Assembly (NCBI GenBank): GCA_035084275.1 | Contig: CM068748.1 | Span: 16,058,001 to 16,122,000 of the forward strand | DNA length: 64,000 bases | Reading direction: 5' to 3' | Source of the DNA: Hydrolagus colliei | Lineage: Eukaryota | In this document: in pieces, positions 26,126 to 64,000 of the stretch | How the letters are laid out: the number at the start of each line of letters is the position of its first letter | Numbering within the stretch: position 1 is the first letter of the stretch | The notes under the pieces: generated by a model | Told to the model about the DNA's origin: nothing | Seen by the model: only the letters and a program-made list of their open reading frames with translations | Database searches by the model: none | Position numbers and translations under genes: made by a program

Positions 26126-29100
26126 AGAAGGTTAGACTGTTGCCCTTTTGCATTTGGGATCTGAGATCAGATCTAACTTTAATGCATTCCAACTTTTTAT
26201 CTGCCCTCCAGCACTAGTTCTCTCTGTTGTGTACGCTCTTGCTGTCTCTCTCTCTCTCTCACACACACAAAGTAGGTTGGCTAATCTCGAGCAATTTTGT
26301 ATTGGATACAGAGCTGCTCACAATTAAGCACATATGGGTAATATAGTACACTGGTTTCATGGATGACTGGGCTGAGAAGTGGAGCTCTTAATCTGTTTGG
26401 TGGTTGACACATTCCCAGGGCAAAGTAACAAGAGCTTTGCAGTTCATTTCCACTGATTTGCTTGCACTCATGTTACACCTGCAGACAAGTAAAAGAGGAC
26501 AAAAAACATGGTATGAATTTATTTCCTCTATTGGGTGAAACTCTTGCAGTGATATTGGCTCCAAATCCAGCTGCTTCCAAATCAGGCTTGTATAAATATT
26601 CCCCAATTAAGTCATTTAACTGGTGAGATTTTCCCCATCGTTCCTTGTATATCAGTGTAAGATGTGGGCAGGCAATTCAATATTCTTAAGTGTATGCACA
26701 GGGTCAGGGCAAAGGCGAGCGTAAACATTGGTGGGGAATCAAAATCAATTGAGCTTAACAAATCAGAATTGAATGATTCTCCCAGTGAAAGCGGAGTATT
26801 TAAAAGCACTAAGCCTTCTGGATGGTAATTATAGTTCAGATATCTGATTTACCCCAGGGATATGCTGATTACTTTATTACCAGAGCAATATTCATCACCA
26901 AACAACAGTCGTCTTGTCATGGTAATGGCTGCTTATGAAAGTCACATCATCTGATCTCGTGGGGTTAATGAGATTTAAACAAGGAGGGGCTGTTATTGTC
27001 GGTTAATGATGCAGTGCTTCAAGGAAGTGATGATCAATGGATCCAGATGGTTCTAATGAGATTTAGAAATCGCCTAAAAATCTTCGTTTGACACATAGGT
27101 TTTGCCTAGAGACTCAATTATCCTGTTTTCTGGTTCAAATTAAAAGGGCTCATTATTCATACACTCTCTTGTCCTTGCTTGTGTGAGATGGATAACTCCC
27201 ATCTTATTCTGTTTAATTAAGCCCTATGATAATCAATATACCGTATTGTGTATCATTGTGCAAATTAATCCATGTTAACATTACAGTAAATACAGATGTT
27301 TTATGAAAAAATGTTGTGAGGGAGTATGGTATAATTAAATAGATGAGAAGTTTCTAAATGTAAATGCTGCAGCTGATTACCATCAAAATGCCACGGTCTC
27401 AATGATTTCTATTCCATGTGGGAATGTATGCCAAGTCCCGTTACAAAGTCTACAGTTAAATGACCTGCTTGAAATTCTGGAGGGCGCATTTAAGGTTATT
27501 TCTCAGCAGATTGTTTAAGTCATTGCAGAACAAATGTTAAAAATCCCATCAGTCCTCAGAAGCCGAGCAAAATCTTTACAATCCGAGATTGTGGAAGAGA
27601 TTTTGATAGAGATATTGACTTTGAATTGATGCTGGTTATTCATTGAAAGATATTAGTACAGTGTATTAAGAGTTAGTGGTTCAGGTGTGTATTATGCACA
27701 CATTGTACATTGTACTGTGAGAATTTATTCAATTTCAGCGAGCACTGACATCACGAATGTTTAGTGTTTTATGTCATTGCTGACTACTCCATTTTATTAA
27801 TTACCTTGATATTGTATTGAAATATTTAGACAGTCAATGATTGTTCCAATCTCAAGATGACTGATAATTATTTTGTCTAATTGATCAGAATTATCATTCA
27901 CTCAAAACATTTCAGATATTGATCCAATCTTATTTGGATTCCTCTTCTACTTATTACATATCCCACAGCCAAACACTTCAAACATTAGTTTTGAGCCATA
28001 ACCTTTATAATCTTCATGTTTTACACAGATGTTTAATCTTATCTATTTTGTGAAGTTGTTTAATAATGATTAATAATGATTAAACAACTGATAAAAATAG
28101 TTTTATGAATTTTTAAAGTAAATATGCTGCAGTAACTTCTTTATAAGAGAGCAAAGTGATGAACGGCAGGGCCAGAGCTGGAAACATTTGCTTTCTTGAC
28201 ATTTTAGATGTGTTAATTGACGCCAACAAGTAAATATACACAGAGAGAAATAATATGGCTAATTATTCTATATTTTTATTAATTCACTCGGGGATAAAGT
28301 TGAAATTCTATGGAATATGCATTCATAATTGTTAATATTCTACAGCAAAAATGCTCCCGGCAGGTGAGCTGATTTATAGCAGACTAACTAGTACAGTTTG
28401 CAGTTTCAAATCCAGCGGGTGAACATTCTTTACAAGTGTGTTTGTGCATGCATTGAGCTGTAATGAAATGAAAAGTTGGCAGTGTATTTGACTAGTGAGT
28501 TGTGTTTTTCCAGAGTAGAAGTGAGGCCTCATGCCCTTTTGATACTGTGAATGATAAAACAGAGCATGCCACGAGTTCTAGCACTGTCAGGTTTATAACC
28601 ACCAGTAGAAATAATGCGGACTGACCATAGTGCTGATTCCACATGAAATTAGAATTGTTCAGGATCCACACACACCAAGCACTGTGATATAAATAGCGTG
28701 TTTCCCAACATCCTTCCTAATATAGTTGCTTCTCCTTCAGCACATAGGTACCCGAACTGTGTTCAGAAAAATGTTCCGCTCAGTTCTTTCTGTAACACAT
28801 AAAAACTGCCATGAAAAGTTTCACTTGTGAACTGTGACGTTGGTGTGGTTCCCAAACACACTTTGTTCCCCTCCCACCAAATCACAGAAGGCACAACTCT
28901 GATTGTTTCTAGATTGGAGAGATATTTGAGACCCTCACATTATCCTGGTTTCTTAATGCTTCTCCAGATGGACAGCTTTGTACTCATGATTATTATTCCT
29001 CTACACTTTCATCCTTTCACATGAGCTAGGTTTTGTTTAAGTGTAATTGTTTGGGAAGTCAGAATAATCTGCTGGCATCCATAACCTTGTCCTGCAGTTG

Positions 29101-36921: not shown

Positions 36922-37125
<204 letters not shown>

Positions 37126-39273: not shown

Positions 39274-39282
39274 TGATCTATT
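39274..39282 (+). CDS. KCNMA1: Alternative 9-nt 'IYF' microexon (TGATCTATT)
   Basis: tgcacactgatag|TGATCTATT|gtgagt; symmetric phase 1; encodes L-I-Y-(F/S); upstream TGC at 39261 and downstream TGCATG at 39361. Confidence 0.9.
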
Positions 39283-42200: not shown

Positions 42201-42469
42201 AAGTTGCCTCGCTGGCAAACTCGATTGCAAACTTGAAAATACTTTAAAGTGTTTATCATCAATTTCAAAGTGATATGCTGAAGTTTTTTCTTTCAACTTG
42301 TAAAAATGACTTCTTGTTACTGTGCTTCATTTGAATAATCTGGCTCTTCTTCCTTGTCAAGCCTGCTAACGTTACTAAGGCCTATGTTAGTTCCCTTGTT
42401 GATTCCTTCCAACTGCCAGACTAAATAACCTTGCCATTAACCTGCTCCTCTTCCTCTCCTTCCATCGAA

Positions 42470-42480
42470 AACATGATTAT
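42470..42480 (+). promoter_or_regulatory. CaRRE1-like splicing element (AACATGATTAT) between the polypyrimidine tract and the AG of STREX
   Basis: 10/11 match to the CaMKIV-responsive consensus CACATNRTTAT, at the same position as in mammalian STREX. Confidence 0.65.
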
Positions 42481-42482
42481 AG

Positions 42483-42656
42483 CCAAGATCTCCATCTACA
42501 AGAGAATGAAACTCGCATGTTGTTTTGATTGCGGAGGCTGTGAGCGTGACTGCGCTTGCATGTCAGGCAGTGTACATAGTAACATGGACACCCTTGAGAG
42601 AACCTTCCCACTTTCTTCTGTCTCTGTTAATGATTGCTCCACCAGTTTACGTGCCT
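42483..42656 (+). CDS. KCNMA1: STREX alternative exon, 174 nt: (P)KISIYKRMKLACCFDCGGCERDCACMSGSVHSNMDTLERTFPLSSVSVNDCSTSLRA(F)
   Basis: gattatag|CCAAGA...GTGCCT|gtaagt; length and sequence match STREX; symmetric phase 1. Confidence 0.96.
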
Positions 42657-53795: not shown

Positions 53796-53828
53796 CAAAG
53801 TATAACTATAACGGATTTATCACCTCAA
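53796..53828 (+). CDS. KCNMA1: Alternative 33-nt linker exon: (P)KYNYNGFITS(I)
   Basis: cattttctttccgttgtcttcag|CAAAG...CCTCAA|gtaagt; strong splice sites, frame-preserving, phase 1; resembles YGYNGY inserts I recall from non-mammalian Slo1 isoforms. Confidence 0.8.
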
Positions 53829-62955: not shown

Positions 62956-63055
62956 TTGCGGTTGAAGATCAACGTCCATCAACACTGTCACCCAAAAAAA
63001 AGCAGCGCAACGGAGGCATGCGAAATTCACCCAACAGTTCACCCAAATTGATGAG
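62956..63055 (+). CDS. KCNMA1: KCNMA1 exon, 100 nt: (L)[32 protein letters not shown](R)
   Basis: tatgtttgcag|TTGCGG...TGATGAG|gtaaga. Confidence 0.95.
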
Positions 63056-64000
63056 GTAAGAAAAGACAGCTAAAGAACTCTCTGTCTGAAGAGAAAGGGA
63101 GCGAGCGAGAAAAATCCTTAAAGGCTGAAGTATTTATTCTGTCAGGCTGTCAGCGGTTAATGATAGAGCTGAAAAATTTCTGTCATGAAAGAGGGTAGGC
63201 AAAGCTGTTAGAGAGAATGCAGGCTTTAAACTCTCAGCTGTCACCTCAGTCTGTCCACATGTATTTCTTAAACAGCAATGGCACTAATGACAGCGGTAAC
63301 CAATCAGAGAGACTCATACGGTTACCTTCCCTCAGGCTATTCCCTGTGTCTACGAGTCCCTTGGAGTACTGTTTTCTGTACTTGAGGCCATATGTGAGAT
63401 GTATCGTAACAATGAAAAATGAACCCAAATTTTTACATTCCTTTTATCTTGTCCATTTGCATTAAATTGTCGTTAATTGATTTTGACTCCGAGGAGAGAG
63501 AAATGGCGCGGGAGTGGGAGGAAGCTAAATAATTGGCAGGTTCGGTAACGGGAAGTTTACGAGCTGGTGATGAGTGAGGGGAGCACTTGGTTGCTGCCGT
63601 GTCACGGGTTAACCTGCACTCGGTGTTTGACAAGTAAACAGCTTCATCCACTTAGCATATGAAACAATCATACAAGAAAATTGCTTGGGGTTTACAGAAG
63701 CTCCAAACCTTATTTTTTGCTGAACAGAAGGTCCCTGTTTACCATGTAAAATATGCACCAACCTCTTTTGATCTCTACACAGTATTAATTCCGAGGAGTG
63801 GGTTGAACTCTTATGGTGCGCTTCAAAGCTGTGCCGAACTTTTGCCGCTGTAGGGTAATCCTTTATATTAGTGGCCCTCGGGTGGCTGAATGACAGGTCT
63901 CCTGTGCTAGGTGGAGCTTTCTCAAGTTGTAGCCTTCAGCAAAATGTGGAATTACTGAACAGAGAATCACCCGGGCTTTCAGAAATCCGTTTCCCGCAGA

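Follow-up and report, generated by a model that had tools for sequence, protein, structure and literature searches.

The closest described system is the STREX insert of the vertebrate BK channel. In mouse STREX, the adjacent cysteines C12:C13 are reported to be acylated (PMC4122160; PMC3256903), and S636 has been described as the PKA site, within a linker predicted to be unstructured (PMC3256903). Insert positions follow mouse throughout this work, Ser3 being S636 and C12:C13 being C645:C646, according to the same source (PMC3256903). It also reports that the removal of nearby basic residues raised the palmitoylation of STREX, and it considers that C649 (C16) might be palmitoylated too (PMC3256903). 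Reviews state that the hypoxic inhibition of STREX channels requires C23, S24, and C25 (PMC8727448; PMC12346439) and that the STREX cysteines increase inhibition by oxidation (PMC8727448). The hypoxia response has been reported as independent of STREX S-acylation (PMC4122160), and the replacement of Ala by Thr in the ERA motif reportedly eliminates the response of BK to stretch (PMC8117780).

The second system to be considered is the iron-sulfur site of ferredoxins. The sequence CxxCxxC has been described as the core cluster-binding heptapeptide, with a loop that favours residues of positive phi (PMC3320576). Three ligands of the ferredoxin cluster are said to come from this heptapeptide and the fourth one from a remote cysteine, mostly found as Cys-Pro (PMC3320576; PMC10946529). 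Short Cys-spaced peptides, all-Gly ones included, are reported to form [4Fe-4S] in vitro, and in the working maquettes the x3 gap precedes the heptapeptide instead of following it (PMC10946529).

An initial annotation of the STREX exon of Hydrolagus colliei had proposed that an additional cysteine creates a ferredoxin-type spacing, and that this STREX may bind an Fe-S cluster or Zn, possibly in competition with palmitoylation, acting as a splice-selectable O2/redox sensor. We have followed up this proposal computationally in the window, i.e., the whole stretch of 64 kb that was analysed. The additional residue, Cys19, is real, and it is a variant that recurs within a well-known exon; judging from the comparison of sequences, it is unlikely that this STREX works like a metal site.

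The STREX exon and its gene context

The exon under study is the STREX exon of KCNMA1, an in-frame cassette located between the exon that encodes the heme motif CKACH and the next exon of the RCK1-RCK2 linker (Table 1). The bases 42518-42559, which read exactly as the initial annotation gave them, lie in frame within this exon and translate as CCFDCGGCERDCAC. The complete peptide of 57 residues is identical to the STREX of Callorhinchus milii kcnma1a (XP_007896679.1; 100% identity), and it shares 88-93% identity with the remaining matches listed. When it was used to search the PDB sequences, the matches were BK alpha chains only (best E about 1e-24).

Table 1. Features of KCNMA1 in the window that are relevant to STREX
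Feature	Position	Strand	Remarks
Upstream constitutive exon	37044..37120	+	Heme motif CKACH at 37057-37071; identical to C. milii
STREX alternative exon, KCNMA1/kcnma1a	42483..42656	+	174 nt, phase 1-1; AG acceptor, GTAAGT donor
Ser3	42491..42493	+	Mouse PKA site S636; invariant in 85/85 taxa; inside polybasic stretch
C12:C13 dicysteine	42518..42523	+	Mouse palmitoylation site C645:C646; invariant in 85/85 taxa; C13 opens the proposed motif
Gly18 codon GGC (Arg elsewhere)	42536..42538	+	Gly in 2/85 taxa: Hydrolagus colliei, C. milii
Cys19 codon TGT, extra cysteine (Ser in most vertebrates)	42539..42541	+	Cys in 7/85 taxa, Ser in 78/85
C23-A24-C25, in place of the mammalian hypoxia motif C-S-C	42551..42559	+	Sequence comparison
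E38-R39-T40, instead of the ERA stretch-sensitivity motif	42596..42604	+	Thr40 at 42602-42604
Downstream constitutive exon	62956..63056	+	4/31 residues differ from C. milii

The STREX exon has one match in its own genome, where KCNMA1 is single-copy, and the exon after STREX likewise matches once; given these single matches, a duplicate downstream exon or a paralogue was rejected. The remaining exons of the RCK1 region are found in order within the window, and the gene runs on into the next 40 kb. Compared with C. milii, there are five differences in the 377 residues compared in the window, one of them being a boundary artefact and the other four lying in the exon after STREX; with five further differences downstream of the window, the total is about nine. 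In that exon (62964-63056), the 4 changes fall within 31 residues, and the ten other exons of the window show zero. Two alternative exons were also observed. A candidate mini-exon of 9 nt (39274-39282), flanked by AG/GT, explains the LIYS junction of the C. milii isoform P0002, and an alternative exon of 33 nt (53796-53828) encodes KYNYNGFITS and is identical to that of the C. milii isoform P0131. The predicted protein models of C. milii exist both with and without the STREX exon, and in skate, the electroreceptor form of BK is reported to lack STREX (preprint 10.1101/274449).

The exon is conserved at the DNA level as well. Compared with a contig from a distant fish (L002), it is identical at 150 of 171 bases and at 16 of the 20 four-fold sites, and the acceptor is also conserved. 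Since the DNA itself is conserved, including the four-fold sites, the slow change of STREX need not reflect protein constraint alone. Splicing control is reported to act at the STREX acceptor (PMC9456152), and the conservation of the exon and acceptor DNA is in keeping with the idea that this control restricts which substitutions become fixed. About 55 intron bases upstream of STREX (42425-42482; L002:446-498) are strongly conserved with respect to the same contig, and this stretch corresponds to the location of the hnRNP L/CaMKIV element in rat.

Cysteine layout and distribution of Cys19

The STREX peptide of H. colliei contains seven cysteines, at insert positions 12, 13, 16, 19, 23, 25, and 51. 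As the initial annotation described, C13-x2-C16-x2-C19-x3-C23 forms the spacing CxxCxxCxxxC, the residue after C23 being Ala and not Pro; bird STREX and the BK chains of the PDB have Arg-Ser at positions 18-19 and six cysteines, and the CKACH motif, placed there about 30 residues upstream, begins 33 residues before C12 (36 with the IY mini-exon). In the common STREX, position 19 is the sole site where one added cysteine completes CxxCxxCxxxC. The same S19C substitution also creates the spacing CxxxCxxC starting at C12, the spacing known from radical-SAM enzymes.

To put this pattern in perspective, the four-Cys codon pattern occurs twice in the DNA of the window, where 0.27 occurrences are expected, and 4 of 100 shuffles reach two. 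The second occurrence (27686-27718) is intronic and was taken as chance. When the peptide itself was shuffled, the exact motif appeared in 0.4% of the shuffles of the 57 residues and in 6% of those of the 14-residue Cys cluster, whereas any of four Fe-S-type spacings appeared in 12% and 57%, respectively. Thus, the cysteine spacing alone is weak evidence, because more than half of the cluster shuffles give one of the four spacings and because CxxxCxxC arises together with the motif.

The distribution of Cys19 was analysed in a residue table with one STREX per taxon. Its 85 taxa comprise 8 cartilaginous fishes (including H. colliei), 6 ray-finned fishes (including L002), the lungfish, 8 reptiles, and 62 birds, taken from the best 120 of 687 matches, the best 120 of 632, 3 short matches, cluster members, and L002; isoforms lacking the STREX exon, Logan fragments, amphibians, named teleosts, lamprey, and mammals lie outside the table. 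Mammalian STREX was represented by three PDB sequences, all with Ser19 (8Z3S, 9JO3, and 6ND0 list STREX). Among the matches listed, the seven taxa with Cys19 are H. colliei, C. milii, Scyliorhinus canicula, S. torazame, Melanerpes, Dryobates, and Pogoniulus. Ser19 is found in 59 of the 62 birds and in four of the eight cartilaginous fishes listed, namely the batoids Leucoraja, Rhinoraja, Mobula, and Hemitrygon. Cys19 is thus dispensable, since 78 of the 85 taxa carry Ser. Residues S3, C12, C13, C16, C23, and C25 are invariant in all 85.

A homologue search among short proteins returned 3 fragments, zero of them with Cys19; the single fish-like contig found in a metagenome scan, L002, carries Ser19; and a search of the ESM Atlas matched hypothetical proteins only, with scores of at most 0.78. 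Two observations on single residues deserve mention. C51 is replaced by Tyr in the cormorant and flamingo records (2/85), the sole loss of a canonical STREX cysteine among the named taxa (P0247, P0248). In woodpecker STREX, Ser19Cys is the sole difference from the common bird STREX, to which the barbet adds S29N (P0005, P0006, P0159). The woodpecker and chicken sequences thus isolate residue 19 alone and constitute a natural one-residue comparison.

Parsimony changes were counted on a textbook tree, typed by hand, with 38 of the 85 taxa. This tree requires 31 steps overall, and 37 of the 57 sites show zero; site 24 has the most (5), followed by site 19 with 3 steps, each of them between Ser and Cys. 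By this count, the Cys19 of piciforms arose separately from that of cartilaginous fishes, where it may represent the ancestral state or the outcome of one or two gains. No gain of Cys was found at any other site among the 85 taxa, although a single base change would suffice to turn 15 other codons, 7 of which lie at variable sites, into Cys codons. The chance of two Cys gains sharing one site would be, as a rough and uncomputed estimate, 1 in 8 to 1 in 16, which is suggestive, not strong.

These results do not support the lineage-specific character that the initial annotation attributed to Cys19, which is also present in Scyliorhinus and piciform birds and absent from the four batoids; only Gly18 is restricted to the two chimaeras among the 85 taxa. 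Regarding whether the residue is fixed or ancestral, both chimaeras carry Gly18-Cys19, but Cys19 extends beyond them and its root state for jawed vertebrates is ambiguous on the 38-taxon tree. The residue is shared by C. milii, and the taxa lacking it include near relatives of its carriers among cartilaginous fishes as well as birds.

STREX is nearly invariant from bichir to birds, and the sites that do vary, 19, 24, and 40, touch the reported redox, hypoxia, and stretch determinants. Site 24 is S/T/A/P in 73/6/5/1 of the 85 taxa. Chimaeras, bowfin, and Varanus have Ala there (42554-42556 in the window), sharks and rays have Thr, and the lungfish has Pro. Ser24 is absent in 12 of the 85 taxa, H. 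colliei included, so C-S-C is not a universal feature of STREX, its Ser being missing in 11 other taxa too. Thr40 is found in all 8 cartilaginous fishes sampled and Ala40 in 77 of the 85 taxa. The chimaera STREX (C19, A24, T40) is predicted to retain PKA/palmitoyl control and to lack both the mammalian-type hypoxic inhibition and the chick-type stretch sensitivity.

Possible roles of Cys19

We consider it probable that Cys19 is a tolerated Ser/Cys swap in an exon that works as in mammals, likely with no stable metal cofactor. Because S3, the basic stretch, and C12:C13 are conserved, the mechanism described in mouse would probably extend to the chimaera STREX. The polybasic stretch around Ser3, which the exon completes and which has 10 Lys/Arg in 21 residues, would draw the linker towards the membrane; C12:C13 would be acylated by zDHHC enzymes, and phosphorylation of Ser3 by PKA would release the membrane anchor. 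Site 19 would admit small side chains bearing OH or SH and no others, and with Cys one base away from two types of Ser codons, the ferredoxin-like spacing would be a by-product of a new cysteine in a Cys-dense stretch. The high changeability of site 19, its Ser in the great majority of taxa, and the invariant anchor residues make this reading likely. Several facts count against it. That site 19 changed three times, always between Ser and Cys, that no Cys was gained elsewhere, and that this is the only motif-completing site hint at something more than tolerance, and Cys19 has been kept in two chimaeras, two Scyliorhinus species, and three piciforms. The swap leaves the invariance of C16, C23, and C25 without full explanation, and Gly17-Gly18, between C16 and C19, would suit the loop geometry reported for cluster binding (PMC3320576). 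If Cys19 is indeed a tolerated swap, its significance is small, since we deal with a known exon and a natural single-residue variant already in RefSeq.

A less probable, tentative explanation is that Cys19 has been selected as a thiol that tunes the channel in the absence of metal, by oxidation, by a disulfide (C16-x2-C19), or by S-acylation, and that it possibly offsets the loss of Ser24 in cartilaginous fishes. This would account for a repeated Ser/Cys change confined to one site, and it agrees with the reported contribution of STREX cysteines to inhibition by oxidation (PMC8727448). It also fits the increase in palmitoylation reported when basic residues are fewer and the suggestion that C16 may be palmitoylated as well (PMC3256903), as Gly18 takes away a basic residue beside C19. 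The compensation of Ser24 does not match the distribution, because piciforms have both C19 and S24, and batoids, bowfin, and Varanus keep S19 without S24. A covariation of C19 with the loss of S24 was rejected from the 85-taxon table. To our knowledge, chimaeras, catsharks, and woodpeckers have no evident ecology in common.

It is improbable that Cys19 completes or strengthens a physiological Zn or Fe-S site of the unpalmitoylated STREX, as a splice-selected redox/O2 sensor in which Zn would be as plausible as Fe-S. The heptapeptide CxxCxxC is present as C13-C16-C19, position 19 is the unique one that completes the longer motif, and the spare cysteines (12, 25, 51) or other subunits could supply a fourth ligand. 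The in vitro assembly of [4Fe-4S] on short Cys peptides (PMC10946529) and the normally palmitoylated cysteine string protein, whose disease mutants reportedly receive Fe-S from ISCU by misloading (PMC10903463, citing Naseri 2020), point in the same direction. Against it, the Pro is missing after C23, neither the STREX exon nor the complete C. milii isoform P0127 contains a Cys-Pro, and the Fe-S-type motif occurs once in that isoform, with no second motif. In ferredoxins, the x3 cysteine of the motif serves a second cluster. The fourth ligand reported there is a remote cysteine, the x3 gap of the maquettes lies on the opposite side (PMC3320576; PMC10946529), and C51, the candidate for such a remote ligand in STREX, is replaced by Tyr in 2 of the 85 taxa. 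Moreover, C13 is one of the two acylated cysteines (PMC4122160), and Cys19 is missing in 78 of the 85 taxa.

Profile and sequence searches gave the same picture. No family was found in a Pfam and NCBIfam profile search at E<=10, in which the HMMER filters drop weak matches, and no ferredoxin was matched in the PDB sequences. The pattern of two separate CxxC typical of regular Zn Cys4 sites is absent, since both CxxC overlap at C16, and there were 0 matches to Zn-finger Pfam families. AlphaFold2 modelled the 57-residue STREX with low confidence (pLDDT 52.7) as helices with zero strands, and Foldseek found no match with this low-confidence model. The AlphaFold2 model of the full-length C. milii BK, built on a 28-row alignment, has a pLDDT of 26.9 and says nothing on order or disorder in STREX. 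No literature joining STREX with iron-sulfur was found in a search whose coverage leaves out subscription journals, and broader searches, some of them crowded by papers unrelated to STREX, found no Cys19 STREX variant in the portions of text they reached. Judged by its sequence, the STREX of H. colliei is not a member of a ferredoxin family, and the bacterial-type site envisaged by the initial annotation finds no backing. The O2 sensor and its competition with palmitoylation fare no better, since the hypoxia motif reads C-A-C here and STREX S-acylation is reportedly not needed for the response to hypoxia; for the latter reason, a switch between metal and palmitate would differ from the hypoxia route already known. 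Should a metal site indeed be completed by C19, this would give a chemical mechanism for the redox/O2 sensing of STREX, and the channel would be a rare vertebrate example with an Fe-S or Zn switch.

Even more doubtful is the broader version of this idea, according to which C13/C16/C23/C25, together with the Ser or Cys of position 19, would form a latent metal site in all STREX, filled on PKA-driven depalmitoylation, cartilaginous fishes and piciforms independently holding its high-affinity Cys19 form. Finally, that the Cys19 codon is an assembly error or a private variant is scarcely conceivable, and the possibility of a sequencing error raised by the initial annotation failed, because two species share Cys at residue 19: the C. 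milii records contain an identical 57-residue STREX though both genes differ elsewhere, and the same Cys19 is present in five further species.

Comparison with known systems

The exon of H. colliei shares its position, length, and phase with the vertebrate BK STREX known from mouse (S636, C645:C646, CSC). It keeps S3, the basic stretch, and the six canonical cysteines, with 91% identity to bird STREX. It differs from the STREX common to birds, gar, and turtles in M2I, R18G, S19C, S24A, and A40T; S24 and A40, both changed in the chimaera, are the residues reported as needed for the hypoxia and stretch responses.

With the bacterial-type [4Fe-4S] ferredoxins, it shares the x2-x2-x3 spacing of cysteines and a Gly after the second cysteine. 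Unlike them, STREX lacks the Pro and a second motif and matches none of the ferredoxin families, it is an acylated linker predicted to be unstructured, and the third cysteine of the motif is missing from most of its orthologues.

The mutants of DNAJC5 (cysteine string protein alpha) also contain a normally palmitoylated Cys cluster able to take up Fe-S, and are a precedent for the idea of competition (PMC10903463). However, this precedent is pathological: it is reported for mutants and leads to aggregation, not to a physiological sensor (PMC10903463). The sequence of the protein is unrelated to STREX.

Within BK itself, a further known system is the heme-regulatory motif CKACH, which shares the RCK1-RCK2 linker with the STREX cysteines, about 30 residues upstream of them. 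The addition of STREX is reported to raise the kcat of the heme-dependent peroxidase activity of BK about 2-fold (PMC12346439), an effect that needs no Cys19, since it was seen with the human STREX of Ser19 type. In contrast to the STREX cassette, CKACH is constitutive, and it is invariant here.
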